The position numbers and the translations under genes are program-made. DNA of 64,000 nt, taken from contig JAAYAL010000035.1 in assembly GCA_012719395.1 (NCBI GenBank), positions 6,084 to 70,083 of the forward strand. The letters run 5' to 3'. Positions within the stretch are counted from its first letter, which is position 1, and every line of letters starts with the position of its first letter. Under the pieces are notes generated by a model. The model ran no database searches. It was not told the origin of the DNA and saw only the letters and a program-made list of their open reading frames with translations. The DNA comes from Gaiellales bacterium. Lineage in GTDB: Bacteria > Actinomycetota > Thermoleophilia > RBG-16-64-13. This document shows positions 1-52,961 of the stretch, piece by piece.

Positions 1-1892
1 GGGGCCAGGTCAAGCAGCGGCTGGCGGGCACGGAGAATCCGCGACTTGACACCGGGACCACTGAGGTGATGGTCACGGAGTTGACGGTGCTGGCCGAGTC
101 GGACGCGTTGCCGTTCGCGGTGTCGGAGAAGGCCATGGTGGCGGGGGCGCCCTCGGCGGAGGCCGAGCAGGTGGCCGAGGACCTGCGGCTGCAGTATCGC
201 TACCTCGACATCCGCCGCCCCTCCATGCTGGACAACCTGGCGCTGCGCCACCGCATCTTCCAGACCGTTCGCCAGTTCTTGGACGAACGAGGCTTTTTGG
301 AGATCGAGACGCCCGTGCTGACCATGAGCACCCCGGAGGGCGCCCGCGACTATCTGGTGCCCAGCCGTGTCCACCCTCAGAACTTTTACGCGCTGCCCCA
401 GTCGCCCCAGCTCTTCAAGCAGTTGCTCATGATCGGCGGCGTGGAGCGCTACTTCCAGCTGGCACGCTGCTTCCGTGACGAGGATCTGCGTCCCAACCGG
501 CAGCCGGAGTTCACGCAGCTGGACCTGGAGGCCTCCTTTATCGACGAGGAGTTCCTCTACGAGCTGGTCGAGGAGCTCACCGTCAAGATGTTCGCCGTGG
601 GGGAGATCGAGCTCGCCCGGCCCTTCCCGCGCATGACCTACGCCGAGGCCATGGACACCACCGGCTCCGATCGCCCGGACCTGCGCTTCGGCCTGCGCTT
701 CGTGGACGTGACCGACGTGTTCGCCCACACCGACTACGCCATCTTCCGCCAGATCCTGCAGCGCGGTGGCTGTATCAAGGGCCTCAATCTCAAGGGCCAG
801 TCCCCGCGCCTGAGCAAGAACGTGCTGCAGAACGAGTACGCCAAGGAGATCGCTCCCTCCTTCGGGGCCAAGGGCATGACCTGGATGCGGGCGGAGAACG
901 GCGGGCTGGAGTCCAACATCGTCCAGTTCTTCAGCGCGGAGGAGTTGGAGGAGCTGCGGCGGCGCTTCGACGCTGCCGACGGCGACGTCCTCATCATGGT
1001 GGCCGACCCCTCCTACGAGGTGGTCACCTCGGCTCTGGGCCAGCTGCGCCTGCATTTGGCCCACCGGCTGGGGCTCATTCCTGCCGGCAGCTTCTGCCCG
1101 GTGTGGATCACCGAGTTCCCGCTCTTCGACCCCACCGACGAGGGCGGTGTGACCTCCAGCCACCATCCCTTCACGGCGCCTGATCGCACCGATTTCGATC
1201 CCACCAACATCGAGGAGCTGTTGGCCCTGCGCTCGCGGGCCTACGACCTGGTGGTCAACGGCGAGGAGCTGGGCGGTGGGAGCATTCGCATCAACAACCG
1301 GGACGTGCAGCGCAAGATCTTCGCGGCGCTGGGGCTCTCGGACGAGGACGTGCGCGAACGCTTCGGCTTCTTCCTGCGCGCTTTCGACTTCGGGGCGCCG
1401 CCGCACGGCGGGCTGGCGCTGGGCATGGATCGCACGGTGGCGATGATCCTGCAGACGTCCTCCATACGCGAGGTGATCGCCTTTCCCAAGAACCGCAGCG
1501 CCGCCTGTCCGCTGACGGGGGCGCCGTCGGCGGTGAAGCGCGAGCAACTGGCGGAGCTGGAACTGCTGAACCTGGGCGGCCAGGACCTGCTGCCGGGGAC
1601 GGCGGAGAAGGAGGACTGGATCGACCGGTTGTCGTGGGTGTCGCGCATCGGGATAGGGGCGGAGGAGCGGTCGGTCATGGAGGAGACGGTGCGGCGGGCA
1701 GAGGCGCTGGCGGCGCTGGCGGCCGAGAAAGCGGGCGGCGAGAAGCCGATGTACAGCGTGGTGCCCGTGGCCAATCGCATGCGTCCCGGAATCGAGGCGC
1801 GGCGGTCGGAGCTTGCCCAAAGCGGTCGTCTGCTGAAAAACGCGCCGTCAACCAAGGGCGACTACTTCAGAGTCGCCGGCATCCTGGAATAA
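1..1892 (+). CDS. aspS: Aspartyl-tRNA synthetase (5'-truncated by window edge) with C-terminal GatC-like domain fusion
   Basis: The reading frame is open to position 1, and the first Met sits at 66. The translation carries class II aaRS AspRS motifs (LRLQYRYLDIRRP, FYALPQSPQLFKQLLMIGG, FQLARCFRDED, GGGSIRI, GLALGMDR). The last ~95 aa (DWIDRLSWVSRIG...LLKNAPSTKGDYFRVAGILE) align to GatC, e.g. the B. subtilis GatC tail KNAPDHKDGYIRVPSILD. Confidence 0.85.
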   Translation, partial: GQVKQRLAGTENPRLDTGTTEVMVTELTVLAESDALPFAVSEKAMVAGAPSAEAEQVAEDLRLQYRYLDIRRPSMLDNLALRHRIFQTVRQFLDERGFLEIETPVLTMSTPEGARDYLVPSRVHPQNFYALPQSPQLFKQLLMIGGVERYFQLARCFRDEDLRPNRQPEFTQLDLEASFIDEEFLYELVEELTVKMFAVGEIELARPFPRMTYAEAMDTTGSDRPDLRFGLRFVDVTDVFAHTDYAIFRQILQRGGCIKGLNLKGQSPRLSKNVLQNEYAKEIAPSFGAKGMTWMRAENGGLESNIVQFFSAEELEELRRRFDAADGDVLIMVADPSYEVVTSALGQLRLHLAHRLGLIPAGSFCPVWITEFPLFDPTDEGGVTSSHHPFTAPDRTDFDPTNIEELLALRSRAYDLVVNGEELGGGSIRINNRDVQRKIFAALGLSDEDVRERFGFFLRAFDFGAPPHGGLALGMDRTVAMILQTSSIREVIAFPKNRSAACPLTGAPSAVKREQLAELELLNLGGQDLLPGTAEKEDWIDRLSWVSRIGIGAEERSVMEETVRRAEALAALAAEKAGGEKPMYSVVPVANRMRPGIEARRSELAQSGRLLKNAPSTKGDYFRVAGILE

Positions 1893-1898
1893 GGGGAC

Positions 1899-3116
1899 GT
1901 GGCCATGGATCCCATCTTCTTCCATCGCAATCCGGATCCCGCCACGGCGGAGGGCCCACGGCAGGGACTGCGGGTGGCCCTCCAGCCCAACCTGGCCGTC
2001 GCGGGCTGGCCCATGGAAGCCGGCTCCCGGGCCTTGGCAGGTTACGCGGCGCCGGAGGACGCCACCATCGTGCGGCGGCTGCGAGCGTCCGGCGCCCATC
2101 TCTCCGGCTCCACTCATATGAGCGAGTTCGGCTTGGGTCTGGCCGGCAATGGGACGGGGGCGGCGCTGCGGGCCGGCGAGGCCGACGTGGAGCTGGTGCT
2201 GGACCTCATGGGGGAGAGCCGGCTGGCCGCGGCCGGTGCCGCCGTCTGCGGCTTCAAGCCCAGCTACGGACTGGTATCGCGGTTCGGCCTGGTGGGGCTC
2301 ATTCCCTCCATGGAGTGCTGCGGCATCATGTCTGAGAGCCTGGGCGGCATCCGTGCCGTGCTGCAGGTCGTGGCCGGTCAGGACGGCCTTGATTTCTCGC
2401 TTCCCGAGGAGCCGGTGCCGGACTTCGCGCCCGAGACCGTCGATCCGGCGCGGATCACGGTCGGCGTGGTGGGGGAGGCGCAGCACGACCTCGGCGTTAC
2501 GCAGGAGGAGGCATTTCGTTCGGCGATCGACGGCATGGCCGGGGCGGGATTCGCCGTCCGGCAGGTGTCGCTGCCGGAGTGGCCTCTCTTTGCCTTGGTG
2601 CATAGGATCGTGGGCTCGGTGGAGGCTTCGTCCGCGGCCGGCCGTTACGATTCCGTTCGCTACGGCCGACGAGCATCGGGCGCCAAGAACTGGAACGAGA
2701 TGTATCTGCTGTCGCGTGGCGCGGCGTTTGGGACGCTGCTCAAGAGCTACCTCATCCAGGGTGCCTACTTCCAGTTCGAGCGCTACGGTGCGTTTGAGGA
2801 CGCGTGTCGCATCCGCGCGCGGCTCGTGGGGGAGATGCGGCGGCTGATGGCGGAGGTGGACGTCCTGGCACTGCCGGCGGTGGTTTCGGGGCCGAGAGGG
2901 GGCGAGGCTGCCGATGACGCTTCGGATGCGCCGGACGGCGTGTACGCTCAGTTCGCCTTGACGCTGTTCGCCAATGTGACCGGCCAGCCGGCCCTGTGTC
3001 TCCCGTCGACCATGGCGTCGCACACGGGGCTCCAGCTGGTAGGTCCGCGCCTCAGTGACGGGCGGCTCCTGGCGCTTGCCGAGTACCTGCAAAAGACGGG
3101 CCGGGGAGGCAACTGA
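1899..3116 (+). CDS. gatA: GatA-like amidase-signature protein (shortened, catalytic triad degenerate)
   Basis: It lies between aspS-gatC and gatB with 3-6 nt gaps. Amidase-signature motifs are present (CGFKPSYGLVSRFGLVG, EASSAAGRYDSVRYG) and the C-terminal tail resembles GatA. At 405 aa it is shorter than the ~485 aa typical of GatA. Gln replaces the catalytic Lys (VALQPNL), and GNGTG replaces the GGSSGG cis-Ser region. Confidence 0.7.
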   Translation: MAMDPIFFHRNPDPATAEGPRQGLRVALQPNLAVAGWPMEAGSRALAGYAAPEDATIVRRLRASGAHLSGSTHMSEFGLGLAGNGTGAALRAGEADVELVLDLMGESRLAAAGAAVCGFKPSYGLVSRFGLVGLIPSMECCGIMSESLGGIRAVLQVVAGQDGLDFSLPEEPVPDFAPETVDPARITVGVVGEAQHDLGVTQEEAFRSAIDGMAGAGFAVRQVSLPEWPLFALVHRIVGSVEASSAAGRYDSVRYGRRASGAKNWNEMYLLSRGAAFGTLLKSYLIQGAYFQFERYGAFEDACRIRARLVGEMRRLMAEVDVLALPAVVSGPRGGEAADDASDAPDGVYAQFALTLFANVTGQPALCLPSTMASHTGLQLVGPRLSDGRLLALAEYLQKTGRGGN

Positions 3117-3118
3117 CC

Positions 3119-4549
3119 ATGGAATTCGAAGCGGTCATCGGCCTGGAGATCCACGTGGAGCTGAACTGCACCACCAAGCTGTTCTGCGACTGCCCCAATC
3201 GCCCCGGGGATGATCCCAATGCCAATACCTGTCCCACCTGCCTTTGGCTGCCGGGCGCCATGCCGCGGCTCAGCGAGCAGGCGCTGGAGAAGGCGTCGCT
3301 GCTCTGTCTGGCCCTGGGCGCCGAGCTGCAGCCTCGCAGCGCCTTCGACCAGAAGGTGTACTACTACCCGGACCTGCCCAAGGGCTACCAGCTTTCTCAG
3401 GCCCATCTGCCGCTGGCGCGCGGCGGAGGCGTCGACATCATCGATGAGGACGGCTCCCCTTGCCGGCTGCGCATCCACCACGTCCACATGGAAGAGGACG
3501 TAGCCAAGCTGGTGCACGAGATGGAGGGCCGGGTGCCCATCAGCCTGGTGGACTTCAATCGCGCGGGGGCACCGTTGGTGGAGATCGTCACGGAGCCGGA
3601 TTTCCGCGCGCCGCACCAGGCCATGGAGTTCCTCAAGGCGCTGCGCACCCAGGTTCGCTACGTGGGCGCTTCCGAGTGCAGCATGGAGAACGGCACCATG
3701 CGCTGCGACGCCAACATCTCCGTCCGTCCCCGCGGCACCACACAGATGAACACCAAGGTGGAAGTCAAGAACATGAACTCGGTGCGGCACGTGGGCGACG
3801 CCATCGCCTACGAGATCGAGCGGCAGGGCGCGTCCGTGCAGGCGGGTGAGGCGGTGGTGCTGCACACGCGGCTGTGGGACCCGGACAAGAAGGCCACTTT
3901 GCCCATGCGTGCCAAGTTCGAGGGACCCACCGTGCCCGATCCGTCCGTGTCCGCCATTGAGCTGTCGCGGGAATGGATCGAGCGGATGCGGGCGCAGCTG
4001 CCGGAGATGCCGGCGGCGCGGGCCGAGCGGTTGGTGGAGCAGCATGGGCTGACGCGAGACGAAGCGCTCTCGTTGAGCGCCGACCCGGAGTCGGCCGACT
4101 TCCTCGAGGCCCTGGTGGCCGAGGGCGTGGCGCCGCGCATGGCCATGCACTGGCTGACCACGCAGCTGCTGCCCGCAGTGAGGGAGCGGCGGCAGGGACT
4201 GGGGACCTCACCTGTGTCTCCCGTGCGGCTGGCCGGGCTGTTGCACATGCTGGCCAAGGAGGAGGTCAACGCCAAGGCGGCGCGCGATGTGCTGGCGCAG
4301 ATGTTTGAGAGCGACCGGAGGCCGGAGGCGATCGTGCAGGCCTGCGGCTTCTCCCAGATCTCAGACCGTGGAGCCCTTGACGACCTGATCGATCAGGTGA
4401 TCCGCGGGCAGGAATCAGCCGTGGCCAACTACCGCGCCGGGCAGGAGAAGGCGCTGGGCTTCCTGGTGGGTCAAGTGATGCAGGCCTCGCGGGGGAAGGC
4501 CAACCCCAAGGTGATCAGGGAGCTGTTGGTGGAGAGACTGGGCGCGTAG
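3119..4549 (+). CDS. gatB: Asp-tRNA(Asn)/Glu-tRNA(Gln) amidotransferase subunit B
   Basis: The translation has the GatB N-terminus MEFEAVIGLEIHVEL and the Cys cluster CDCPNRPGDDPNANTCPTCLWLPG. It has a YqeY-like C-terminal tail and is 476 aa. Confidence 0.9.
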   Translation: MEFEAVIGLEIHVELNCTTKLFCDCPNRPGDDPNANTCPTCLWLPGAMPRLSEQALEKASLLCLALGAELQPRSAFDQKVYYYPDLPKGYQLSQAHLPLARGGGVDIIDEDGSPCRLRIHHVHMEEDVAKLVHEMEGRVPISLVDFNRAGAPLVEIVTEPDFRAPHQAMEFLKALRTQVRYVGASECSMENGTMRCDANISVRPRGTTQMNTKVEVKNMNSVRHVGDAIAYEIERQGASVQAGEAVVLHTRLWDPDKKATLPMRAKFEGPTVPDPSVSAIELSREWIERMRAQLPEMPAARAERLVEQHGLTRDEALSLSADPESADFLEALVAEGVAPRMAMHWLTTQLLPAVRERRQGLGTSPVSPVRLAGLLHMLAKEEVNAKAARDVLAQMFESDRRPEAIVQACGFSQISDRGALDDLIDQVIRGQESAVANYRAGQEKALGFLVGQVMQASRGKANPKVIRELLVERLGA

Positions 4550-12637: not shown

Positions 12638-13438
12638 ATGAGCAACGCCGAGCGGGCGACTGGCGGCTCTGCGGTCACTCAGGATCTTGAGCCGCGGTTC
12701 CGGAATCTGCGCTGGTGGAACATCGTGGTGGGTCTGATCCTAGCCGTGCAGGCGGTGATCTTGGCCGTGCTGTCCAACGATTTCACCATCCCGGTGACGG
12801 CCGGCTACCTGCAGGGCCCCCCCGGGACTGATCCCGTCCTCACCAGGATTGGCGGCCTGCAGCTGGCCTGGGGTGTCTTCGCCTTTATGGCCATCTCGGC
12901 ACTGGCGCTACTCACCATTGCTTCGCCGGGGGTCTTTGGCTGGTACAAGCGCAATCTCACCCAGAGTCGCAACTACGGCCGCTGGATCGAGTATTCCATC
13001 AGTTCGTCACTCATGATCATGCTCATCTCCATGGTGTGCGGCATCACCGATATCGCGGCCATCCTCGCCATCTTTGGCGTGAACGCCTGCATGATCTTCT
13101 TCGGGCTCCTGGTGGAGAAGTACGAGACCCCCGGCAAGACCAACTGGGCGTCCTATCTGTTCGGCTGCTTCGCGGGCATCGTCCCGTGGATCGCCATCGT
13201 GGTGTACCTCGTCAGCCCCGGATACGACGGCGGGCGGCCCCCGGGCTTCGTGTACGCGATCCTGGTCTCCTACTTCGTGTTCTTCAACACCTTTGCCGTC
13301 AACATGGTGTTGCAGTACAAGCGGGTGGGAAAGTGGCGGGATTACCTCTTCGGCGAGAAGGTCTACATCCTGCTCAGCCTGACCTCCAAGTCGCTGCTGA
13401 CCTGGTTGGTGTTCGCGAATACGCTCATCCCTTCGTAG
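12638..13438 (+). CDS. Heliorhodopsin (7-TM retinal protein, inverted topology family)
   Basis: There is near-colinear similarity to heliorhodopsin 48C12 (LSNDF.IP.T.GYL.GPPGT; RWIEYSISSSLMIMLI..VCGI.DIAAILAIFGVNA.MIFFG.L.EKY; GCFAGIVPWIAIVVY; PGFVYAILVSYFVFFNTFA; QYKRVGKWRDYL.GEKVYILLSLTSKS). The Schiff-base Lys lies in the last helix. The SD is GGAGG. Confidence 0.85.
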   Translation: MSNAERATGGSAVTQDLEPRFRNLRWWNIVVGLILAVQAVILAVLSNDFTIPVTAGYLQGPPGTDPVLTRIGGLQLAWGVFAFMAISALALLTIASPGVFGWYKRNLTQSRNYGRWIEYSISSSLMIMLISMVCGITDIAAILAIFGVNACMIFFGLLVEKYETPGKTNWASYLFGCFAGIVPWIAIVVYLVSPGYDGGRPPGFVYAILVSYFVFFNTFAVNMVLQYKRVGKWRDYLFGEKVYILLSLTSKSLLTWLVFANTLIPS

Positions 13439-14003: not shown

Positions 14004-14227
14004 TCAAGGGTGCCGGAGCGCTGTCCTTGCTGCCGTGGTGGCGCCCCTCACGGGGCGGGGCGCAACGAGCGCGCTTTCGCCCTTGGCCCCGCTCTGTCAG
14101 GCCGGCGGGCAGTTTGACTGTCGTTGCGTCCCTGGTTAGTCTGGAGGTGACGGTTGCTCGCGCTCGCCGTCGTCGCGGGGCGGGTGATCTTCCTCCACAT
14201 CGTCCACGCCACCGGATTGGGGGTTCC

Positions 14228-15415
14228 ATGGAAGCTCGTGATCATCGATCGGCCACGCTCCGAGGCCTGCGCGTCCGCCCGGTGCTGCTGTTGGCGCTGA
14301 CCCTGGTGCTGGTGGTGCTGATCGTGGGGCCGGCTCTGGCTTTCCCCGACGTTGCCGGCCATCCTTATGCCGAGGCCATCCAGGAGATGGCAGACCGGGG
14401 CATCGTCAACGGGTACGGCAACGGGAACTTCGGCCCTGACGGCCACGTGCTTCGCCAGCACTTCGCCAAGATGGTCTCGCTGACGCTGGATCTCCCCGCC
14501 GCCGAGTACGAGTGCTACTTCACGGACGTCGACAGGGGTCTCAGCCCCACGGATCCGCTTTTCCCCGACCGCTACATCGCCGTATGCGCGGCGTGGGGTA
14601 TCACCACCGGTGTCACGGATACCACCTTCGCGCCCTACGACAACATGAGTCGGGCGCAACTCATCACCATGGTGGCCCGGGCTGCGGAATTGCCTGATAC
14701 ACCACCCGCGTACTCGCCGCCGTTCGGCAACTTCGACAATACTCACTATCCCTGGGCGGCTCGGGCCTACCGCGCCGGCATGCTGGACGACCTGCTGGGG
14801 ATGGGGGCCGGCTACGACTTCTGGAAGCCGGCCACGCGCGCTGAGGCGTGCCAGATGCTGAGCAGTCTGCTCGCGTGGAAGGCTTCGGATCTGGTGGCAG
14901 TGATGAGGGCCCTTGAGGATTCGGGACTGATTGCCGAGGACTTCTTCGTGGAGGACTTCCTCATCACGGGTGACTGGGCGGGCGTCATCATCAGTGCTCA
15001 CGCCGTCGACACCGCCTCCGCGGGCCTGCAGCGGACGGTCGGCGGCTGGCAAGTGGTGCGCATCGGCACAGACCTGTCTTACGAGGGCTGGCTGACTCTG
15101 GGTGCGCCGGAGAACATCGCCGGTTTCCTGTCTGAGTACTCGGAGCTGGACATCATCCGCGATGTGCTGGCACAGTCTGATGCAATAGATGTGGACTTCG
15201 AGATACGTGACTCCCTGATTCTGGGCAGGTGGGCCGGGGTGGTTATCGGGAGCCCGGGACTGGACGACCTGTCGATTCTGCTGTACAAGAGTGGCTTGGT
15301 GGGCTGGGCCATCCTGGACCTGGGCACCGGGCTCTCCCAGGCGGACTGGCTGGCCTGGGAAGTGGCCGGGGAGTTCTGTCCGCTGGCCATTGCGCAATTT
15401 CTGACACCGTGCTGA
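14228..15415 (+). CDS. S-layer homology (SLH) domain protein with N-terminal TM/signal segment
   Basis: There are two SLH repeats (FPDVAGHPYAEAIQEMADRGIVNGYGNGNFGPD; YFTDVDRGL...IAVCAAWGITTGVTDTTFAPYDNMSRAQLITMVARA). The internal Met at 14228 precedes a hydrophobic stretch. The 5' part of the track ORF is Arg-rich and probably not coding. Confidence 0.7.
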   Translation: MEARDHRSATLRGLRVRPVLLLALTLVLVVLIVGPALAFPDVAGHPYAEAIQEMADRGIVNGYGNGNFGPDGHVLRQHFAKMVSLTLDLPAAEYECYFTDVDRGLSPTDPLFPDRYIAVCAAWGITTGVTDTTFAPYDNMSRAQLITMVARAAELPDTPPAYSPPFGNFDNTHYPWAARAYRAGMLDDLLGMGAGYDFWKPATRAEACQMLSSLLAWKASDLVAVMRALEDSGLIAEDFFVEDFLITGDWAGVIISAHAVDTASAGLQRTVGGWQVVRIGTDLSYEGWLTLGAPENIAGFLSEYSELDIIRDVLAQSDAIDVDFEIRDSLILGRWAGVVIGSPGLDDLSILLYKSGLVGWAILDLGTGLSQADWLAWEVAGEFCPLAIAQFLTPC

Positions 15416-15558: not shown

Positions 15559-18500
15559 CTACGGCCGGCTCAGTTCCTCATACGCGTTGCGGAACATGCG
15601 CAGCCAGGGGCTGTTATGGTGGCGCCACCGCGGTGGGACCCAGGGCCACTGCCGTAGCTGGAAGCAACGCTCCGGGTGGGGCATGAGGGCCAGGTGCCGT
15701 CCATTCGGTGAGCACAGGGCGGCGATGCCCAGCGGGCTGCCGTTGGGGTTGAAGGGGTAGGCGATGGTGGGCTCACCCTCCGGGTCCACGTAGCGGATGG
15801 GTGCCAGGCGATTGGCCACGATCCAGTCCAGCGTGGCCGGATCCGGCACGTGCAACCGGCCTTCGCCGTGTGCCACCCAGATGCCCAGGATCGAATCCTC
15901 CATGCCCTGCAGCATGACGGCGGGGCTGGGCCCGATGCGCACCGTGCTGAAGCGGGACTCGAAGCGCTCCGAGGTGTTGCGGATGAAGCGCGGCTGCCGG
16001 TGGTCCGGTAGGTCGAAGCCGGGGATGCCCAGCAGGGCCATGAGCTGGCAGCCGTTGCAGACGCCCAGGGACAGCGTGTCCGGGCGGGAGAAGAACGTGG
16101 TGAACTCCTCAGAGAGACGCTCATGGTTGCGGATCACCGAGGCCCAGCCCTTGGCTGAATCCAGGACGTCCCCGAAGGAGAAGCCGCCCACGAAGGCCGC
16201 GAGCTGGAAATCCTGCAGGTCCACGGAGCCGTTGAGGAGGTCGGTGGTGGTGACGTCCCAGGGCTCGAAGCCGGCCGCCAGGAAGGCGGCGGCCATCTCG
16301 CGGTCGCCGTTGCTGCCCTCCTCGCGCAGAATGGCGGCGCGGGGGTGGGAACCACGAGTACGGCGTCGCTCCGGGGAGGGCGCCGCGGCCCGACTACCCG
16401 GAAAGGTGCCGTGGGGGCCGGGATCGGCGTCGGGGTCGAAGCTGAGGCGGTAGGGTGTGGTGACCGGGGGTAGGTGGTGTGATTGCCATTCCTGCTCGGC
16501 GCACCCGGGGTTGGCCTGCAGGCGCTCGAGGCGGTAGGCCGTCTCCTCCCAGGCCAGGTGGAGATCCCGGAGCGGCTTCCGCAGGAGCGGCTCCCTGTTG
16601 AAAGCGAGTTCCAGCGTGGGCGCATCCTGCACGGTGCCGAGATCCACTGCCGTCACCCCGTGGCACTCAAGGACAGCCGCTGCCTGTGCTTCGGCGCCTT
16701 GCGCCACCTCCACCACCACAGCTGCCTCTTCGGCAAACAGGGCGTGGTAGGGGTCCTCTCCGGCCACGTCCACCCGCCAGCCACGGTCGCCGGCGAAGGC
16801 CATTTCCAGCAGGGTGACGATCAGCCCACCATCGCTCACGTCGTGGCAGGACACGATGGCCCCGCGTCGCACCAGTTCCTGCACGGCGTGGAAGACGGCC
16901 TTGAGCGTGGCCGCCTCCTCGATGTCCGGTGTTTCGTCGCCCAAGGCGCCCAGCACCTGGGCCAGCGCGCTGCCGCCCAGCCGCTGCCGCCCTCCCACGG
17001 GGAGCAGCAGCAGACGGTCGCCGGCAGCCTTGAGGTCCGGCGTTACCCGCACCTCCACGTCCTCCACCAGGGCGTAGGGGGCGATCACCAGCTGCGGTGG
17101 CGACAGCACCAGCTCGGAGCTACCGTCCGGCGCCACGCCCTGGCTGGCCATGGACAGGCTGTCCTTGCCGCCGTCGACGGCCACGCCCAGCTCCGACAGA
17201 AGATCGCGTAGGGCGCAGGCGGCGTCGTAGAGCCAGGCTCCCTCGCCGGGCTGCTTGGCGGCCAGCATCCAGTTGGCGGAGCATTTGATGTCACTGAGGT
17301 CGGTGACGACGACCCCGGCCATGTTGAGCAGGGCCTCGGCCACGGCCATGCGCGCGCCGGGACCGGGCGAGAGCAGGCCCTTCAGGGGCTGCTCGCCCAG
17401 GCTGAGGGCGGTACCGGAGGGGTCGGCGTAGCTCTGGGCGATGACGGCGTGGTCGGAGAGGGGTAGATGCCGTGGCCCCACCAATTGCCGCTGCATGACC
17501 AGCCCGGTGACGTCCAGGTCCACCTTGTTGGTGAGGAAGCGCTTGGAGCAGACGCTGGGGAGGCGGAGCACCAGGTCCAGCAGGCGGCCGAAGCCGGAGG
17601 CCGGGGGGAGGGACAGGGGCCGCGCAATGCGGGGGCGCCGGTCGAAATCGAAGCGCTTGGGTGGCAGCTGGCCAAGAATGTCGTCCAGGGGGAGTTCCAC
17701 CGGGCGCGAACCGTCGCGCGTGTCCTGGAGAACCAGGAGCCCCTCGCCGGTTACGCGCCCCACCACGGCCAGTGGCACGTTCTCGCGCGCGGCCACAGCC
17801 TCCAGCACCGCGAGATTCTGGGGGCGGATGAGAAGGGCGTTGCGCTCCTGCGATTCGTTGCCCCAGATCTCCAGCACGGACAGTGTCTGATCACCCACGG
17901 GGATGGCACGGAGGTCGATCACCGCTCCCGCCGGCTCCACGATCTCCGGCAGGGCGTTGCAGTCACCGCCGGCGCCCAGGTCGTGGGCGGAGACGACGGG
18001 GTTGGCCTCTCCCAACTCGGCGCAGGCCCGCATGAGGCGGTTCATGCGCTGTTCCATCTCCGGGTCGCCGCGCTGCACGGCGTTGAAATCCAGCTCCTGC
18101 ACATTCCGGCCCTGCTCCATGCTGCTGGCCGCGCCGCCGCCCATGCCGATGCGGTAGGCGGGGCCGCCCACCTGCACCACCAGCATGCCGGCCTCCGGTG
18201 CGCCCTTGACCGTGTGCTGGTCCCGGATCTGACCGGCGCCCACGCTGTACATGAGGGGCTTGTACCAGGAACGGTAGCCCTCGGGGAGGTGCAGACCGAA
18301 GCTGCGGGTGAAGCCGTAGATGAGGGGCTCGCCGAAACAGTTGCCGTAGTCGGAGGCGCCGTTGCTGGCCTGGATGAGGATGTCCAGGGGCGAGGCCAAG
18401 TCCGGCGGGTGGGCCCAGCCGTCCTCCTCCCAGGGCAGCTCGTAGCCGGGGATGTGCAGGTTGCCGGTGCAGTAGGCGGCGCCGGCTGCGCATACCAGAC

Positions 18501-19524
18501 CGCTGCGTCCCACCGCCTGGTTGTCGCGGATGCGCCCGCCGGCGCCGGTGGCCGCGCCGGGATAGGGTGCCACGCCCGAGGGGAAGTTGTGGGTCTCGGC
18601 GGTCAGCGTGGGGTGGAGCAGGACCGGCTGTGGTGCCAGGGGCGACGGGCCCAGCGGCTGCGCGGCGGCGAGAAGGGACACACGGCGGCCGGCGATGGCC
18701 GAGCTGTCGTCGCGGAAGGCGATCACCGAGTTGGGCGCCGAAGCTTCCAGCGGCTGCCGCACGATGTCCATGAGGTGCTTCTCGGGCACGCGCACGCCGT
18801 CCACCCACAGCCGGCCCCGAAAGACCCAGTGGCGCGAGTGCTCCGAGTTGGCCTGGGCGATCTGGAAGAGCTCCACGTCTGTGGGATCCCGGCCCAGGCG
18901 GCCGTAGATGGAGGCGATAAGCGCCAGGTCATCGCCATCCCAGCTGCAGCCGTAGTCGCGGTTGAAGCGCTGCAGGGCGCCGATGCCCAGGGCGGCCAGC
19001 GGGATCACTTCCACCGGCTGGGGCGTGAGGCCGGTCTCGAAGGAGGTCAGCGGCTGGCGGTAGCGCATCTCCGTCATGCGGTCGCGCAGGATGTTGACCA
19101 GTGCCTCGGCCTGCTCCTCGGTGACTGTCAGTGGCAACCCCAGCCGCATTGAGCGCTCCAGGCGCCACACCGCCCCCACGCCTGATCTCCTGCAGATCTC
19201 CACGGCGGCGGAGGACCACGCCGTTTCGAAGTTGAGGCGGGGGCCGTACTCGAGCACGGTGGGGAAGCGGCCTTCCAGGAAGCTGCCGTCCCCGAACCTG
19301 TCGGGTTCGAAGGTCTCGGAGAGGACGTAGCGCAGGATGTCCGCGTCACGGTCGGTGAGCGCGGTGCCCGCGTGGTGTCCTGTCTCCGCGTAGAAACAGT
19401 GCTCGGTGGCCACCTGTCCTACCGGTTTGCCCAGGATGGCCTCAGCGGTCGAGACGAAGGCCTCGACCCTGGTCGCGGTCATGCCCGGGGTACGGAAGAA
19501 ACGCCACATGCTCATAGGCCACAA
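15559..19524 (-). CDS. purL: Phosphoribosylformylglycinamidine synthase, large single-chain form
   Basis: The 1321-aa protein has an FGAM synthase N-domain, AIR-synthase-related domains and a C-terminal class I glutaminase domain in one polypeptide. Confidence 0.9.
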   Translation of the reverse strand: MWPMSMWRFFRTPGMTATRVEAFVSTAEAILGKPVGQVATEHCFYAETGHHAGTALTDRDADILRYVLSETFEPDRFGDGSFLEGRFPTVLEYGPRLNFETAWSSAAVEICRRSGVGAVWRLERSMRLGLPLTVTEEQAEALVNILRDRMTEMRYRQPLTSFETGLTPQPVEVIPLAALGIGALQRFNRDYGCSWDGDDLALIASIYGRLGRDPTDVELFQIAQANSEHSRHWVFRGRLWVDGVRVPEKHLMDIVRQPLEASAPNSVIAFRDDSSAIAGRRVSLLAAAQPLGPSPLAPQPVLLHPTLTAETHNFPSGVAPYPGAATGAGGRIRDNQAVGRSGLVCAAGAAYCTGNLHIPGYELPWEEDGWAHPPDLASPLDILIQASNGASDYGNCFGEPLIYGFTRSFGLHLPEGYRSWYKPLMYSVGAGQIRDQHTVKGAPEAGMLVVQVGGPAYRIGMGGGAASSMEQGRNVQELDFNAVQRGDPEMEQRMNRLMRACAELGEANPVVSAHDLGAGGDCNALPEIVEPAGAVIDLRAIPVGDQTLSVLEIWGNESQERNALLIRPQNLAVLEAVAARENVPLAVVGRVTGEGLLVLQDTRDGSRPVELPLDDILGQLPPKRFDFDRRPRIARPLSLPPASGFGRLLDLVLRLPSVCSKRFLTNKVDLDVTGLVMQRQLVGPRHLPLSDHAVIAQSYADPSGTALSLGEQPLKGLLSPGPGARMAVAEALLNMAGVVVTDLSDIKCSANWMLAAKQPGEGAWLYDAACALRDLLSELGVAVDGGKDSLSMASQGVAPDGSSELVLSPPQLVIAPYALVEDVEVRVTPDLKAAGDRLLLLPVGGRQRLGGSALAQVLGALGDETPDIEEAATLKAVFHAVQELVRRGAIVSCHDVSDGGLIVTLLEMAFAGDRGWRVDVAGEDPYHALFAEEAAVVVEVAQGAEAQAAAVLECHGVTAVDLGTVQDAPTLELAFNREPLLRKPLRDLHLAWEETAYRLERLQANPGCAEQEWQSHHLPPVTTPYRLSFDPDADPGPHGTFPGSRAAAPSPERRRTRGSHPRAAILREEGSNGDREMAAAFLAAGFEPWDVTTTDLLNGSVDLQDFQLAAFVGGFSFGDVLDSAKGWASVIRNHERLSEEFTTFFSRPDTLSLGVCNGCQLMALLGIPGFDLPDHRQPRFIRNTSERFESRFSTVRIGPSPAVMLQGMEDSILGIWVAHGEGRLHVPDPATLDWIVANRLAPIRYVDPEGEPTIAYPFNPNGSPLGIAALCSPNGRHLALMPHPERCFQLRQWPWVPPRWRHHNSPWLRMFRNAYEELSRP

Positions 19525-46924: not shown

Positions 46925-48598
46925 GTGCTGGCAGCAAACGTGGCAAGGGTGGTGGACGAGTGGGTCGCGGAGAAGGGCTGGGAAGGCGTTCCCACCTTCG
47001 GCATGGAGCGCCCGGCTGAAGCCGGTCACGGCGACTATGCCACGAATTACGCCATGCAACTCGCCCGTGTGGCTCGGACCGCTCCGCGGGCGCTGGCGGA
47101 GGAGTTGCGCCTGCGTCTGCTGGCGGACTCGGCCCTGTCCCCCTACGTTGAGTCCGTGGAGGTGGCGGGACCGGGCTTCCTCAACTTCCGCCTCTCGGGC
47201 CTGGCCTTCTGTCGGGCGGCTGAATCGCTGCTCACGCAGGGCGAGAACGTAGGACAGGGCACCCGCAGCAGGCCACTCCACATCAATCTGGAGTACGTGT
47301 CGGTCAACCCCAATGGGCCGTTGCATGTGGGGCACGCCCGCTACGCGGCCTTCGGCGACTCTCTCCAGCGCCTGCTGGCCTTCTCCGGGCATGTCGTCAC
47401 CACCGAGTTCTACATCAATGACTTCGGGCGGCAGATGGAGATGTTCGGCCGGTCGGTGGCGGCGCGCTACGCGCAGCACCTGGGAGTGAACCTGCCTGTG
47501 CCGGAGGACGGCTACCAGGGCGATTACGTGAAGGACATCGCGCGGGCCATTGCGGAGGCGGAAGGGGAGCGTTGGTTGGAGGCCCTGCAGCAGGGCGGTT
47601 TGGAGGACCCGGACAGTGAGGGCTTGCTCTTCTTCCGGCGGGAGGGCTACACGCGTATGCTGGCCGAGATGCAGCGGGAGCTGGCCCACTTCCGGGTGGA
47701 GTTCGATGTCTGGTTCTCTGAGACCCAGCTTCACACCGAGGGCAAGGTGCAGGGGGCCATCAACGAGCTGCTGGAACATGGGGTGGCCTACGTGCAGGAT
47801 GACGCCGTGTGGCTGCGCACCACGGACTACGGGGATGACAAGGATCGGGTGCTGGTGCGGAGCAACGAGCGCCCCACCTACTTCGCCGCCGATATCGCCT
47901 ACCACGAGAACAAGCTGGCCAGGGGCTTCGACCACCTCATCAACATCTGGGGGGCGGACCACCACGGCTATGTGCCACGGATGAAGGCGGCCATCGGGCT
48001 GCTGTGCGGGGATCCGGACCGGCTGGAGGTGGTGATAGGTCAACTGGTGAACCTCACCGAGGAGGGTGAGGCCCGGCAGATGTCCACGCGCCGGGGGGAG
48101 ATGGTGACACTGGGCGAGCTGGTCGACGCCATAGGCGTGGACGCGGCCCGCTTCTTCTTGGTCATGCGCTCCAATGACCAGACGTTGGACCTGGACATGG
48201 CCCTGGCCAAGCGCCAGTCGCAGGAGAACCCTGTGTATTACGTGCAGTATGCGCACGCACGCATCGCCAGCATCCTGCGCAACCTGCCGGAGGGTCTGGA
48301 GCCGGCGGTGGAGCCGGGGGAGGGTGTGTTCGACACGGTGCAGGAGCGCAACCTCATCAAGAAGCTTGCCGAGTTCAGCGCCGTGGTGATGGAGGCGGCC
48401 GACCGACGGGCGCCGCACCGCATCGTGGCCTACGCGCAAGAGCTGGCCGGCGAGTTCCACCCCTTCTACAAGCACTGCCGGGTCATCGGCTCCGAGCCGA
48501 AGGTGGCGTCCTCCCGGCTGGCCCTGTGCCTTATCACCAAGCGGGTGGCGGCCCGCTGCTTGGAACTGCTGGGCGTGGCGGCACCCGAGGCGATGTGA
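46925..48598 (+). CDS. argS: Arginyl-tRNA synthetase
   Basis: The translation is a class I aaRS with ArgS domains (PNGPLHVGHARYAAFGD; DHHGYVPRMKAA; a QMSTRRG KMSK-like motif; DALR anticodon domain). The start is GTG after AAGGAG. Confidence 0.9.
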   Translation: MLAANVARVVDEWVAEKGWEGVPTFGMERPAEAGHGDYATNYAMQLARVARTAPRALAEELRLRLLADSALSPYVESVEVAGPGFLNFRLSGLAFCRAAESLLTQGENVGQGTRSRPLHINLEYVSVNPNGPLHVGHARYAAFGDSLQRLLAFSGHVVTTEFYINDFGRQMEMFGRSVAARYAQHLGVNLPVPEDGYQGDYVKDIARAIAEAEGERWLEALQQGGLEDPDSEGLLFFRREGYTRMLAEMQRELAHFRVEFDVWFSETQLHTEGKVQGAINELLEHGVAYVQDDAVWLRTTDYGDDKDRVLVRSNERPTYFAADIAYHENKLARGFDHLINIWGADHHGYVPRMKAAIGLLCGDPDRLEVVIGQLVNLTEEGEARQMSTRRGEMVTLGELVDAIGVDAARFFLVMRSNDQTLDLDMALAKRQSQENPVYYVQYAHARIASILRNLPEGLEPAVEPGEGVFDTVQERNLIKKLAEFSAVVMEAADRRAPHRIVAYAQELAGEFHPFYKHCRVIGSEPKVASSRLALCLITKRVAARCLELLGVAAPEAM

Positions 48599-48613
48599 TC
48601 CCGGGAATAGGCT

Positions 48614-49438
48614 GTGCCTGAGCTGCCTGAGGTTGAGACCGTCCGCCGCCAGTTGGAGGAGGTGATCCCGGGCTGGACCATCACCTCCGTGCCCCTGGCC
48701 GAGCCCTCCATGCTGCGCGGCCTCGGCGTCCGGGACTTCGAGCGGCGGCTGTCAGGCAACAGCTTCAGCCTTCCTCGGCGCCACGGCAAGTTTCTGCTGC
48801 TGCCCCTGTCCGGGGGCTTCTGGTTGACTGTGCACCTGGGCATGACCGGCCGTATCCTGGTGCCCACGGGGCCACGCTCCCGCGATCCCCATGACCGCTT
48901 TGTTCTGGCGCTCACCCGCGACGGTTGCAGGGCCTGGTTCGTGTTTCGCGACGTGCGCAAGTTCGGGAGGGTGGAGCTCAGCGCGGGGACGCCGGCGCCG
49001 CGCGTGGCCGGGCTGGGCCCGGACGGCTGGACCGGTGTGTGGGACAGCGGCTACTTGGCGCGTCGGCTGGCGGGACGGAGGGCGGCGGTGAAGGCCCTCC
49101 TACTGGATCAACACATCCTGGCCGGGGTGGGGAATATCTACGCGGACGAGGCGCTGTTTGAGGCTCAGATCCTGCCCTTCCGGCCCGCCGGCAGTCTGGG
49201 GCCCGAGGAACTGGAGCGGTTGGCGGCGGCGGTGCGGGCCACCCTGGAGAGGGGCGTGCGCGCCCTGGGCTGCTCCATCTCCGATTTCGCCCACGTGGAC
49301 GGGCGGCTGGGTTCCATGCAACAGGAGTTGCGTGCGTACCAACGCCAGGGACAGAGGTGCGAGCGCTGCGGCGGTACTCTGGAGCGGACCATTATCGCCG
49401 GGCGGGGGACGGCCTACTGCCCGGGCTGCCAGGTGTGA
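48614..49438 (+). CDS. mutM: Formamidopyrimidine-DNA glycosylase
   Basis: It starts MPELPEVETVRRQL (catalytic Pro2 and Glu3). A C-terminal zinc finger CERCGGTLERTIIAGRGTAYCPGCQ is present. Confidence 0.9.
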   Translation: MPELPEVETVRRQLEEVIPGWTITSVPLAEPSMLRGLGVRDFERRLSGNSFSLPRRHGKFLLLPLSGGFWLTVHLGMTGRILVPTGPRSRDPHDRFVLALTRDGCRAWFVFRDVRKFGRVELSAGTPAPRVAGLGPDGWTGVWDSGYLARRLAGRRAAVKALLLDQHILAGVGNIYADEALFEAQILPFRPAGSLGPEELERLAAAVRATLERGVRALGCSISDFAHVDGRLGSMQQELRAYQRQGQRCERCGGTLERTIIAGRGTAYCPGCQV

Positions 49439-49801
49439 GAGATGTGAGGTCGCGGTGACGGGGGAGGGCAATCATGGCAAACGGCGAGTCCCGAGTGAAC
49501 TCGCTTTCCGATCTATCATCGACTCTCCACTTACCGCTGCTTCTCGTACTCTTCGGAACCTCAGTTCCGTTTTCCTTCTACAGCGTTCCCGTGGTGAGTC
49601 TCCAGTTCGGTGCGTCTGAACTCTCGGGACTCTACTTGTATTGTAATCGACCGACCGGGCCTGTCAACCGTCCCTCCTGTCGAAAGATGCCGCAAAATGG
49701 GGCAACCGGGGGCGGACGGCCGTGCGCCGGCAGCGGACAGTCAGCCTTGCGGCTGAGGTGTTGACGCCCGCATGGCGTGAGGTTCCCGGCCCGGAGACGT
49801 G

Positions 49802-49810
49802 TGTTACAAT
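49802..49810 (+). promoter_or_regulatory. Extended -10 promoter element TGTTACAAT upstream of tRNA-Gly
   Basis: The TGn + TACAAT motif sits 18 nt upstream of the mature tRNA 5' end. Confidence 0.4.
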
Positions 49811-49827
49811 CCGGGCAGTCTTCGCGG

Positions 49828-49903
49828 GCGGAGTTAACTCAGCTGGTAGAGTGCCAGCTTCCCAAGCTGGATGTCGCGGGTTCGATCCCCGTACTCCGCT
49901 CCA
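49828..49903 (+). tRNA. tRNA-Gly (anticodon CCC)
   Basis: A cloverleaf was folded by hand. It has a 7-bp acceptor stem GCGGAGT/ACTCCGC, a D-arm ACTC/GAGT, an anticodon stem CCAGC/GCTGG with loop TTCCCAA, a T-arm GCGGG-TTCGATC-CCCGT, a discriminator T and an encoded CCA. Confidence 0.85.
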
Positions 49904-50069
49904 TTCTTTCTTCGCCCTTGCCCTCAGTAACCCAGCGGCGTTGCTCCGAAAGCCACGGTCCCCGCCGCCGTGCCCGGGTGTTCGAGTACCACTCTTCTCT
50001 GGCTTTACCCCCTCCGGTATACTCTGCGCGCCGCTGAGCGGCTCTGAAAACCGGGAAGTGGGTGACGAG

Positions 50070-50366
50070 GTGGATACACAGCCTGCCGAGCATGCAAAGC
50101 AGGCGGATACTACGCAGGTCCTGCACCGTTTGCGGCGCATCGAGGGCCAGGTCCGCGGACTGCAGAGGATGATCCAGGAGGGTCAGGAGTGTGAGGCCGT
50201 GCTGACGCAACTGTCGGCCGTCAAGTCGGCTCTGGACCGGGTGGGCGTGTTCCTCATCACGCATCGCATGAGGGAGTGCCTGCAGTCGTCCGATCAGACG
50301 CTGGATGAGCGGTCCCTGGAGCAGGCTTTTGAAGTCTTTCTCCGATACTCGCAATCTTTCAGGTGA
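50070..50366 (+). CDS. CsoR/RcnR/FrmR-family metal-sensing transcriptional repressor
   Basis: LRRIEGQVRGLQRMIQEGQECEAVLTQLSAVKSALDRVGVFLITHRMRECL carries the C-H-C metal ligand pattern. Its stop overlaps the trxB start. Confidence 0.7.
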   Translation: MDTQPAEHAKQADTTQVLHRLRRIEGQVRGLQRMIQEGQECEAVLTQLSAVKSALDRVGVFLITHRMRECLQSSDQTLDERSLEQAFEVFLRYSQSFR

Positions 50367-51340
50367 CGGGGGTCACGGTGGGTGCTGAGCCGGTGGCAAC
50401 GACTGATCTGCTCATCCTTGGTGGAGGGCCGGCCGGTTTGACGGCCGCCATCTATGCTGCGCGTGCCGGTGTGAAGACATTGGTGCTGGAAAGGCAGATG
50501 ACGGGCGGGCAAATCGCGACGTCGGAGCGGGTGGAGAATTTCCCCGGCTTCCCCGATGGTGTGGGTGGCATGGAGTTGTTGGAACTCTTCAAGCAGCAGG
50601 CGCTGCATTTCGGGGCGGAGATAAGGGAGATTGAGGAGGCGGAGGACTTTGTCCCCGGCGCTCCGCACCGCGTGGTGACTGGGTCGGGTACCTACGGCGG
50701 GCATGCAGTCATCATCGCCACCGGTCTGGACCCGCAGGGGCTCGGCTGTGACGGAGAGGATCGCTTTCGGGGCCGCGGGGTCTCGTACTGTGCCACCTGT
50801 GACGGCGCGTTCTTCCGCGATCGCACGGTGGCGGTGGTGGGAGGGGGGAATTCGGCGGTGGAGGAAGCGCTTTTCCTCACACGCTTTGCCCGCAAGGTCT
50901 ATCTCATCCACAGGCGCGACAAGCTGCGCGCGGATTTCGTGTTGCAGAAGCGGGCGCTTGAGAATCCCAAGATCGAGGCCCTGTGGACCGCTCAGGTGCG
51001 TGAGGTGCGAGGCGAGGACAAGGTCGAAGCGGTCTTGGTGGATTTCGCGGATCGCCAGGAGACCCGGGAGATCCCGGTGGATGGAGTCTTCCTGTATGTG
51101 GGGCAGAGACCGAACACCGGCTTTGTCAAGGAAGTGCTACAGATGGACCAGAGCGGCTTCATCATGACCACCCACCTGCTGGCCACCAACCTGGCCGGCG
51201 TGTACGCGGCCGGCGACTGCCGGTTCAATCCCATGAAGCAGGTAGTGTGGGCCGCGGCGGAAGGAGCGCTGGCGGCGCAGCAGGCCGGCAAGTACCTGGA
51301 AGAGGCGGGGGTGTGCCGTCTCGACGTGGAGCACGACTGA
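50363..51340 (+). CDS. trxB: Thioredoxin-disulfide reductase
   Basis: The redox motif CATCDG lies in GVSYCATCDGAFFRD. FAD-binding (ILGGGPAGLTAAIYAARAG) and NADPH-binding (VVGGGNSAVEEALFL) motifs are present. Confidence 0.9.
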   Translation: MTGVTVGAEPVATTDLLILGGGPAGLTAAIYAARAGVKTLVLERQMTGGQIATSERVENFPGFPDGVGGMELLELFKQQALHFGAEIREIEEAEDFVPGAPHRVVTGSGTYGGHAVIIATGLDPQGLGCDGEDRFRGRGVSYCATCDGAFFRDRTVAVVGGGNSAVEEALFLTRFARKVYLIHRRDKLRADFVLQKRALENPKIEALWTAQVREVRGEDKVEAVLVDFADRQETREIPVDGVFLYVGQRPNTGFVKEVLQMDQSGFIMTTHLLATNLAGVYAAGDCRFNPMKQVVWAAAEGALAAQQAGKYLEEAGVCRLDVEHD

Positions 51341-51581
51341 CGGTACTGGTGTGAGCACATGGTCTCGCTATGGATGGGTGGTGATCCTGCTCGTCGTTCT
51401 GGAGGTAGTGATGGGCGTGGGTGGGGCGTTGAGCGGCGCCCTCCTGCTGGCCGATCCGGAGAACGGGCTGGGCATGGCAACCGAAATCCTGCAGGGCAGT
51501 CCCTTCGGGGACTTCGCGATCCCCGGCATCATCCTGTTCCTGGCCATCGGCGTGCGGGCCGTGGCGGCACGGCCCGCACGG

Positions 51582-52406
51582 TCAGGCCAGCCGCTCAGTC
51601 AGCCAGGCCAGCACCCGCCGGTGTACCAGCGGCGAGCTCTGCAGGGAGGTGTGACTGCCCTCGGGGAACAGCCAGAGGTCGGCTTCATCACCGAGCGCTG
51701 CGGCCAAGTCCAGGGAGTGTTGGAAGGGGACTCTTTCATCGCCCCGGGCATGGGCGATCAGTACGGGGTTCCTCACCATCTCGGCGTCATCCGCCAGCCG
51801 ATGGTGACGGTAGAACTCGATGAGCGCCTCGTCGTCCAGCCGGGCCTCCAACCCATCGTTGGAGCGAGTGGACCACTCATGCTTCCTCTCCATGGCCCGC
51901 AGCAGGACCTCTTCGTTGGCGGGGCACAGCACGGCCACAGCGGCGAAGTCCGCATCGACGGCTGCCCTGACACCGTAGTAGCCACCCATGCTGGATCCGC
52001 GATAGCCGATGCGGTGGGGATCGACCAGCGGGTGGGTGCGCAGCAGGTTGACCGCGGCCAGGATGTCGCATTCCAAGGGACCGTCCGCCAGTCCTCCGCT
52101 GTCCCCGTGGCCTCGGAAGTCAATGCCCAGGACGGCAAAGCCCGCGTGACAGGCGTCAAAACAGAAGCCGCGATGGCGTGCGCGACAACTGCCTGCGCCA
52201 TGTGCCACGAGGAGGCCGGGCAGACGCGCGGGGCCGGGGTGGGCGTTTGCCGGCAGAAAAAGGGTAGCAGCCAGAAGTGGGGGCCTGCCCGCGTCGTCCG
52301 GCCGGCGGCCGGCGGTGTGCCGGTGCGCTGCCAAGCTGAGAAAGCGTAGGTCCTCGCAGAAGATGTCCGGCGGGCAGGGAAGGAAGCTATGGGCCTGGGA
52401 GGTCAT
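51582..52406 (-). CDS. Alpha/beta hydrolase (dienelactone hydrolase/peptidase S9-like)
   Basis: The nucleophile elbow GSSMGG lies in IGYRGSSMGGYYGV. GIDFRGHGDSGG is present. The hydrolase fold is 274 aa. Confidence 0.65.
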   Translation of the reverse strand: MTSQAHSFLPCPPDIFCEDLRFLSLAAHRHTAGRRPDDAGRPPLLAATLFLPANAHPGPARLPGLLVAHGAGSCRARHRGFCFDACHAGFAVLGIDFRGHGDSGGLADGPLECDILAAVNLLRTHPLVDPHRIGYRGSSMGGYYGVRAAVDADFAAVAVLCPANEEVLLRAMERKHEWSTRSNDGLEARLDDEALIEFYRHHRLADDAEMVRNPVLIAHARGDERVPFQHSLDLAAALGDEADLWLFPEGSHTSLQSSPLVHRRVLAWLTERLA

Positions 52407-52939: not shown

Positions 52940-52961
52940 GTCCTGCCTCTTGCCTTGGCTC

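Follow-up and report, generated by a model that had tools for sequence, protein, structure and literature searches.

A conserved AspRS-GatC fusion encoded next to a GatA homologue without the canonical glutaminase residues: a possible ammonia-dependent Asn-transamidosome

Transamidosomes are a textbook case of substrate channelling that guards the genetic code against mischarged tRNA, and all characterized ones are, to our knowledge, non-covalent and glutamine-using. This background raises a question about a 64,000 nt stretch of DNA from a Gaiellales bacterium (assembly GCA_012719395.1, contig JAAYAL010000035.1, positions 6,084 to 70,083 of the forward strand; the whole stretch is referred to as the window). 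It begins within a gene that fuses an aspartyl-tRNA synthetase (AspRS) to a domain resembling GatC, and this gene is followed by a gatA-like gene and by gatB. Is a synthetase permanently tethered to an amidotransferase in this organism and, if so, to which kind? A preliminary description of the window had read the genes as a standard covalent transamidosome, in which a fused AspRS-GatC is joined by GatB and by a GatA that actively hydrolyses glutamine. A permanent tether is indeed the natural reading of a fusion which is real and conserved and whose operon also holds gatB and a gene of the GatA family. The part of the description that fails is the standard amidotransferase: the adjacent GatA partner (termed pseudo-GatA below) lacks the glutamine-splitting residues, which is the new point beyond a fusion that had already been catalogued. 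We see an even chance that the products of aspS-gatC, pseudo-gatA, and gatB form a dedicated Asn-transamidosome with a covalent tether, which uses free ammonia.

A single frame (frame 3, + strand) is uninterrupted from base 3 of the window to a TAA stop at 1890-1892. The encoded protein consists of a bacterial-type AspRS core, which terminates with ...ELELLNLGG at nt 1580, and a tail of 103 aa (nt 1581-1889). The tail ends in KNAPSTKGDYFRVAGILE, as had been described for a frame running on for about 100 aa past the core. The N-terminal 77 aa of the AspRS, which include the anticodon-binding OB fold, lie beyond the edge of the window and are supplied by the public protein NLT35299.1 (706 aa, named 'MAG: aspartate--tRNA ligase [Gaiellales bacterium]', MAG denoting a metagenome-assembled genome). 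This protein, referred to as P0319, is 100% identical across the 629 aa encoded in the window. The GatA-like open reading frame (ORF) has two possible starts: GTG at 1899, which yields the previously described distance of 6 nt past the fusion stop, and ATG at 1905, which is used in public gene calls and yields a protein of 403 aa. The gatB gene starts with ATG at 3119 and thus, again as described, 2 nt beyond the stop of the GatA-like ORF at 3114-3116. The features of the three-gene region are the following.

3..1580, + strand: AspRS core (class II catalytic domain with GAD insertion), from Pfam, NF001750, and the identity to P0319

1581..1607, + strand: short conserved linker QDLLPGTAE..., joining the C-terminus of AspRS to the GatC-homologous region, from the alignment of 43 tails

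1608..1889, + strand: GatC-homologous domain, in frame with AspRS, from PF02686, profile search, and hhalign

1890..1892, + strand: TAA stop of the fusion ORF, from translation

1905..3116, + strand: pseudo-GatA, amidase-signature fold, 403 aa (405 aa from GTG 1899), from TIGR00132, alignments, and AF2/Foldseek (AF2, AlphaFold2)

1983..1985, + strand: codon of Gln29 (numbering from GTG 1899) at the position of the catalytic Lys, from alignments

2214..2216, + strand: codon of Glu106 (numbering from GTG 1899) at the position of the nucleophilic Ser, from alignments

3119..4549, + strand: gatB, full length, with cradle, helical, and YqeY tail domains, from NF004012 and the alignment to 3h0l_B

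The AspRS core in the window scores 384 bits with the Pfam domain tRNA-synt_2 and 69 bits with GAD. Full-length P0319 reaches 746.5 bits with the AspRS equivalog NF001750 (cut-off 443) and thus classifies as a bacterial-type AspRS (NF001750 / TIGR00459) with GAD present. Long antisense ORFs (204-414 aa) extend over the three genes (window 1241-4150, - strand) and also occur in other high-GC stretches. According to an analysis of the GC content at third codon positions (GC3), these are shadow ORFs, as is typical of DNA with 66% GC, and not genes.

The protein encoded between the fusion and gatB has a length of 403-405 aa, compared to about 480 aa for canonical GatA, with about 45 N-terminal residues being absent. 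It scores 224.5 bits on TIGR00132, for which the cut-off is 481.1. The catalytic triad of GatA is Ser-cisSer-Lys, with Ser178 being the nucleophile in Staphylococcus aureus (PMC2330236). The corresponding residues of pseudo-GatA were identified by alignments to solved GatA chains and to the canonical GatA of a sister clade. The catalytic Lys, which is found in AIKDV or AVKDN in canonical sequences, is replaced by Gln29 (ALQPN), and the nucleophilic Ser, found in DTGGSIR (S178 in S. aureus numbering), is replaced by Glu106 (DLMGESR). Gln29 and Glu106 are invariant in 30 members of the pseudo-GatA family, while the neighbouring Ser107 is not conserved. In addition, 20-22 aa are deleted just upstream of the GGSSGGS motif, which carries the cis-Ser and in place of which the window has GNGTG. 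Because both the Lys and the nucleophilic Ser are replaced, we consider the canonical glutaminase chemistry to be lost in pseudo-GatA.

A structure model of pseudo-GatA was obtained with AF2 (predicted local distance difference test score, pLDDT, 73; predicted template modelling score, pTM, 0.80). When this model was submitted to Foldseek, the nine best PDB matches were all GatA chains, with TM-scores of 0.68-0.74. The model thus points to a retained GatA fold, and pseudo-GatA is best viewed as a GatA-derived scaffold which is not GatA by curated criteria.

The working GatA that had been assumed for this position is not borne out by these data and, judged from its residues, an AspRS-GatC/pseudo-GatA/GatB complex cannot be a standard glutamine-dependent GatCAB. 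The standard covalent transamidosome would fit the operon order and the GatC homology of the tail, and such a pairing does exist in a sister clade. There, the AspRS C-termini of two proteins (P0170 and P0172) are fused to a GatC of canonical sequence, and one sister-clade contig (L081 1-2323; JGI 3300057025, Ga0568893_0139679) carries the fusion, a gap of 160 nt, a GatA of 479 aa, and then the start of gatB. This GatA has an intact triad and scores 628 bits on TIGR00132. For the clade of the window, we nevertheless consider an active glutamine-hydrolysing GatA quite improbable: the exchanges of Lys for Gln and of Ser for Glu are invariant throughout the pseudo-GatA family, the GGSSGG region has been remodelled by deletion, and the TIGR00132 score is far below the cut-off. 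The fact that the sister clade combines a fusion to canonical GatC with a canonical GatA indicates that GatA decayed either after the fusion had arisen or independently of it. The L081 type is presumed to represent the ancestral state of the module, and the degenerate GatA and the divergent tail were derived together in the clade of the window. A more distant member of the latter (P0180, 65% identical) has a short amidase of 414 aa alongside.

GatB looks catalytically intact. It scores 551.8 bits on NF004012 (cut-off 338), has the domains GatB_N and GatB_Yqey, and aligns to GatB from Aquifex aeolicus (3h0l_B) with 420 bits over residues 2-472. The motifs LEIHV, YYPDLPKGYQ, HMEEDVAK, and DFNRAGAPLVEIVTEPD are retained. 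A fourth conserved gene, which might code for an alternative glutaminase, was not found beside the operon, the flanks of which vary between loci; an apparent neighbour cluster (no. 3) is antisense to the fusion gene and probably a shadow ORF. Operon-linked tRNA genes were found neither in 30 loci nor close to the operon in the window, and the 23 ORFs scanned in the 64 kb window include no further gat, asn, or aspS gene. Because there is no glutaminase and no conserved fourth gene, free ammonia is the most plausible nitrogen source, and an Asn-making complex of this composition would probably run on it.

The tail is divergent in sequence. With PF02686 (GatC), it scores 25.7-25.9 bits, above the gathering score of 23, but the match is confined to positions 29-66, in the C-terminal half of the profile; PF02686 matches were obtained for 39 of the 43 family tails. 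On the GatC equivalog TIGR00135, the score of 16.5 bits is below the cut-off of 47.1. A phmmer search against PDB with the tail alone returned nothing significant, and the best PDB match of the tail-family profile, GatC from S. aureus (2df4_C), had an E-value of 0.053. The GatC homology is settled by a profile-profile comparison and by a billion-sequence search. When the 43 tails were compared to 30 stand-alone GatCs with hhalign, a probability of 99.4% was obtained (E-value 6.1e-22, 93 columns), with GatC positions 8-101 corresponding to tail residues 10-103. When 1.84 billion representative proteins were searched with the tail-family profile, the tail family itself came first, followed by over 100 stand-alone proteins with lengths of 93-101 aa, which match end to end. 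All nine of these that were sampled are GatC according to Pfam (39-79 bits). We thus assign the tail, on the strength of these profiles, as a divergent GatC for which the whole domain length is covered. This agrees with the end-to-end alignment claimed initially. A C-terminal extension unrelated to GatC was considered and is ruled out by the hhalign result together with the billion-sequence profile search. The columns upstream of the region aligned by hhalign belong to the linker. Two of its residues, L4 and G6, do not vary among the 43 tails, and P5 is shared by at least 90% of them.

The conservation of the arrangement was surveyed by scanning genomes with the GatA-like protein as seed. The scan identified 151 relatives, and 80 loci were taken for the survey. 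The order AspRS core, tail, pseudo-GatA, gatB was found in every one of the 80 loci, wherever the sequence reaches far enough. Across loci, the identity to the window is 79-91% for the AspRS core, 53-76% for the tail, 53-68% for the GatA-like protein, and 70-86% for gatB. Core and tail share one unbroken frame in 77 of 78 loci. The single exception is Syntrophorhabdus aromaticivorans (L082, KI867149.1, 9990-10040), where one C is missing from a C-run and the two halves are annotated as overlapping ORFs for an AspRS of 586 aa and a 'hypothetical protein' of 128 aa. This split is due either to a sequencing error or to a genuine frameshift in the draft genome of this isolate. P0319 is encoded identically on contigs of four separate assembly records with the same neighbour genes, and nearly all of its 120 best homologues have a length of exactly 706 aa. 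A missed frameshift or stop, or a false read-through of the aspS stop, which the preliminary description had named as a concern, was not detected. The chance that sequencing or assembly created the read-through, or that the tail is an unrelated extension, is thus next to nil. The separate ORFs in S. aromaticivorans, which might be taken to support an artefact, trace back to the one missing C, and this single case is opposed by the unbroken frame in all other loci, by the four concordant assembly records, and by the GatC homology. One aberrant protein was encountered (P0164, 213 aa, NCBI), in which the first ~77 residues of the tail are joined straight to the C-terminal ~95 residues of pseudo-GatA. 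It represents either an internal deletion or an assembly chimera.

For 35 pairs of close loci, the ratio of nonsynonymous to synonymous substitution rates (dN/dS) was computed. The median is 0.076 for the AspRS core, 0.095 for GatB, 0.159 for the GatC tail, and 0.21 for pseudo-GatA, with ranges of 0.06-0.34 for the tail and of 0.12-0.40 for pseudo-GatA. These ratios show that all parts of the module are under purifying selection, including pseudo-GatA, which is not decaying. They bear on the possibility that the operon is a redundant relic, in which the fused AspRS is an ordinary paralogue while the tail and pseudo-GatA are decaying remnants. The evolutionary rate of pseudo-GatA and the tail is indeed 2-3 times that of the AspRS core and GatB, and pseudo-GatA goes by the public name 'hypothetical protein'. 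We consider a relic most improbable, though, in view of the dN/dS ranges of both parts, the ~90 invariant columns in the 30 pseudo-GatA family members, the nearly fixed length of 706 aa of the fusion, and the fact that the whole operon is kept in all 80 loci, over a range of genome GC from 0.42 to 0.70.

A check of the databases for AspRS-GatC fusions, as proposed in the preliminary description, led to a catalogued family. NCBIfam NF009460/PRK12820 is named 'bifunctional aspartyl-tRNA synthetase/aspartyl/glutamyl-tRNA amidotransferase subunit C', so that the fusion architecture is not new. Residues 1-706 of full-length P0319 match NF009460 profile positions 18-723 of 723 with 1326.9 bits (1188.7 bits for the fragment encoded in the window), and the architecture is the same end to end. 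The relative P0180 has all four Pfam domains (OB fold, class II core, GAD, and GatC). Because the curated NF009460 cut-off of 1379 is narrowly missed, the protein is named 'aspartate--tRNA ligase' alone by NCBI and JGI. While the name of NF009460/PRK12820 implies a working GatCAB partner, the GatA adjacent to the fusion in the window is predicted to be catalytically dead. Pseudo-GatA is called 'hypothetical protein' (NLT35300.1) or 'amidase family protein' in public records. Its record is the 403 aa form starting with ATG, and an exact look-up of the 405 aa form starting with GTG gave no match. As both the fusion and pseudo-GatA are labelled in this way, genome-based inferences on Asn/Gln decoding pathways in such lineages may be wrong. 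A full-text literature search turned up no report on AspRS-GatC fusions in nature and none on amidotransferase operons with a GatA that lacks the triad, but mention in subscription-only papers is possible.

In five loci (L055, L056, L061, L077, and L079; Smithella and 'Deltaproteobacteria' MAGs), a second AspRS without a tail is encoded within 10 kb, being 46-47% identical to the fused core. The fused AspRS is thus a paralogue beside a tail-less copy in at least some (Smithella-type) genomes. The gene neighbours were inspected in one of the five loci, L055 (15729-19086, - strand). The tail-less AspRS, which scores 878.6 bits on NF001750, adjoins hisS on the same strand there, which suggests that it is the housekeeping copy. 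It is plausible that the fused AspRS is non-discriminating, i.e., that it charges tRNA-Asn as well. Inspection by eye showed that the anticodon domain of P0319 has His, Gly, and Leu at the positions of E. coli L30, K81, and M87. We take these positions to be relevant for discrimination, and they presumably look non-discriminating in both paralogues.

Class IIb synthetases are dimers. In the ammonia-dependent transamidosome that we propose, the second, bacterial-type AspRS would act as such a dimer and would charge tRNA-Asn with aspartate, while its C-terminal GatC domain would permanently hold one pseudo-GatA/GatB pair per AspRS subunit. GatB would activate the tRNA-bound Asp with ATP, by phosphorylation, and would amidate it to Asn, so that mischarged tRNA would not be released. 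Pseudo-GatA would be retained as a scaffold, probably with the entry to the ammonia channel, and not as a glutaminase. The amide nitrogen would come from free ammonia or ammonium, possibly via the remodelled and partly deleted former glutamine pocket. Physical assembly, specificity for tRNA-Asn, and ammonia as nitrogen donor are what we infer from the genes; association and hand-over of Asp-tRNA-Asn are suggested by the covalent GatC domain and by the invariant three-gene operon. The fact that the bacterial-type transamidosome from Helicobacter pylori is dynamic, possibly owing to its GAD domain (PMC3367201), provides a rationale for a covalent tether. That an amidotransferase can use ammonia is illustrated by GatFAB, which is active with NH4Cl when its glutaminase is bypassed (PMC4027206).

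Several points weigh against this proposal. The case for ammonia is drawn solely from the loss of catalytic residues. The genomes may also contain canonical gatCAB, asnS, or asnB, and the role of the module may lie in translation or in Asn biosynthesis. Because the same anticodon-domain residues are found in both AspRS paralogues, the fused one is not singled out by them. The AF2 model of the full fusion, which was computed from a shallow alignment of sequences with 78-92% identity, is unusable (pLDDT 47, pTM 0.29). A possible equivalent of the cis-Ser (G-S-x-A-G) is present in at least 90% of the pseudo-GatA relatives, the window having Asn at this position. Finally, the old active site has acquired new invariant residues (Q29, E98, D102, E106, R108, K120, and E139), with Cys140 being present in at least 90%, and these could support another chemistry or another donor.

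The latter observation is the basis of the main rival to an ammonia-dependent transamidosome, namely that the GatA-like subunit has taken on a new function. It might have a new catalytic site (Glu, Cys, Gln, Lys) or use another nitrogen donor or nucleophile, with Asn-tRNA being made by another route or with a different aminoacyl-tRNA being the product. Apart from the newly invariant positions, the nearly invariant motif PSMECCG and the dN/dS of pseudo-GatA, which is far below 1, are in line with this. However, no amidase-signature enzyme is known to work without the Ser-cisSer-Lys triad (PMC2330236 for the triad). GatB is entirely canonical in appearance, there is no additional conserved gene that would point to a new substrate, and the conserved residues may equally be structural or related to the channel. 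We therefore regard a new function of this subunit as unlikely.

The ammonia-dependent transamidosome would have several relatives among known systems. The Asn-transamidosomes of Pseudomonas aeruginosa (PDB 4WJ3) and of H. pylori likewise combine a GAD-containing bacterial-type AspRS with a GatC/GatA/GatB-type amidotransferase on tRNA-Asn, and the GatA and GatB chains of 4WJ3 rank among the top matches by structure and by sequence. These complexes differ in being non-covalent, with the one from H. pylori being dynamic as mentioned, and in having an active glutaminase GatA. In the system from the window, AspRS itself carries GatC, and the triad of GatA has been lost. Thermus thermophilus and Deinococcus (PDB 3KFU) also have a second, non-discriminating AspRS beside an ordinary one, linked to an amidotransferase, and their tRNA-dependent Asn synthesis with GatCAB has been described (PMC4206432, PMC3367201). 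The second AspRS of Thermus, however, is archaeal-type without a GAD domain, is unfused, and has a canonical GatCAB partner. Yeast mitochondrial GatFAB likewise has a GatC-like module with an appended part, but the extension of GatF is N-terminal and scaffolds an active GatA, and no synthetase is fused, unlike in the window. AtzE-AtzG (PDB 6C62), which is among the Foldseek matches of the pseudo-GatA model, is likewise a pair derived from GatA and GatC in an altered role, namely a vestigial complex. The situation is the reverse, as AtzE keeps the amidase chemistry and has lost GatB, whereas the amidase chemistry appears to be lost and GatB kept in the system described here. GatC is reported to tolerate covalent fusion in a gatC-gatA fusion polypeptide of Mycobacterium smegmatis (PMC7541841), and synthetases can acquire amidotransferase-derived domains, as exemplified by GlnRS-YqeY from Deinococcus (PMC1865053). 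These have other fusion partners and, as described there, neither of them ties a synthetase to a whole amidotransferase.

The records that contain the module are labelled as Syntrophales/Smithella, Desulfobacterales, Dehalococcoidia, Gaiellales/Thermoleophilia, Acidobacteriota, Verrucomicrobiota, and Planctomycetes-type MAGs. The module is also present in the isolate Syntrophus buswellii DM-2 (NZ_CP175563.1) and in the complete genome ORM2a (CP113000.1). The labels, which are unverified for the MAGs, span at least six phyla (Thermodesulfobacteriota, Chloroflexota, Actinomycetota, Acidobacteriota, Verrucomicrobiota, and Planctomycetota), and most sample names point to digesters, sediments, or enrichment cultures. 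The operon follows its flanks in GC content, from 0.47 to 0.72, and no flanking genes are common to the loci. In ten loci on long contigs, the fused proteins are 70-83% identical to each other and do not cluster by label. The fusion from the window is 77% identical to that from another 'Gaiellales' locus, compared to 80-81% for Syntrophus and an Acidobacteriota MAG. Because the similarities do not track the taxon labels, they suggest horizontal spread of a strongly constrained three-gene module, or else unreliable binning of MAGs. It is a serious possibility, albeit short of a probable one, that we are dealing with a natural tRNA-dependent amidotransferase that gave up its glutaminase, that is, with an ammonia-dependent Asn-transamidosome which is hard-wired to its own AspRS paralogue and has spread horizontally, as a three-gene module that hardly varies, among genomes of anaerobes whose labels cover at least six phyla.

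Being catalogued, the fusion by itself is of modest interest. What is added is a partner that is glutaminase-dead by its residues, a second AspRS to which the fused one is paralogous in some genomes, and a wide distribution discordant with taxonomy. If our proposal is true, a GatA can be maintained for scaffolding or channelling alone, and ambient ammonia can sustain the synthesis of Asn-tRNA in anaerobic habitats. A covalent synthetase-amidotransferase would also offer a stable particle for structural work on the hand-over in a bacterial-type (GAD) system.

The remainder of the window resembles an ordinary chromosome, with genes such as purL, argS, fpg, trxB, lysA, hom, and gdh. A full-length heliorhodopsin of 266 aa is encoded at 12638-13438 (+ strand; PF18761, 315 bits, E-value 3e-94), with a gene for an SLH-domain protein nearby at 14027-15415. 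At 15559-19524 (- strand), a single-chain, large formylglycinamide ribonucleotide (FGAR) amidotransferase PurL of 1321 aa is encoded, to which the GATase_5 domain is fused. Actinomycetota usually have split purL/purQ/purS, and the single-chain PurL may thus be another gene of unusual history in this Gaiellales genome. The region at 46925-57401 (+ strand) carries argS, fpg, a tRNA-Gly(CCC) gene (49828-49903), and trxB, followed by lysA-hom and a gene for a Glu/Leu/Phe/Val dehydrogenase. This stretch partly resembles what we take to be the actinomycetal arrangement argS-lysA-hom-thrC-thrB, which is consistent with the Gaiellales label.

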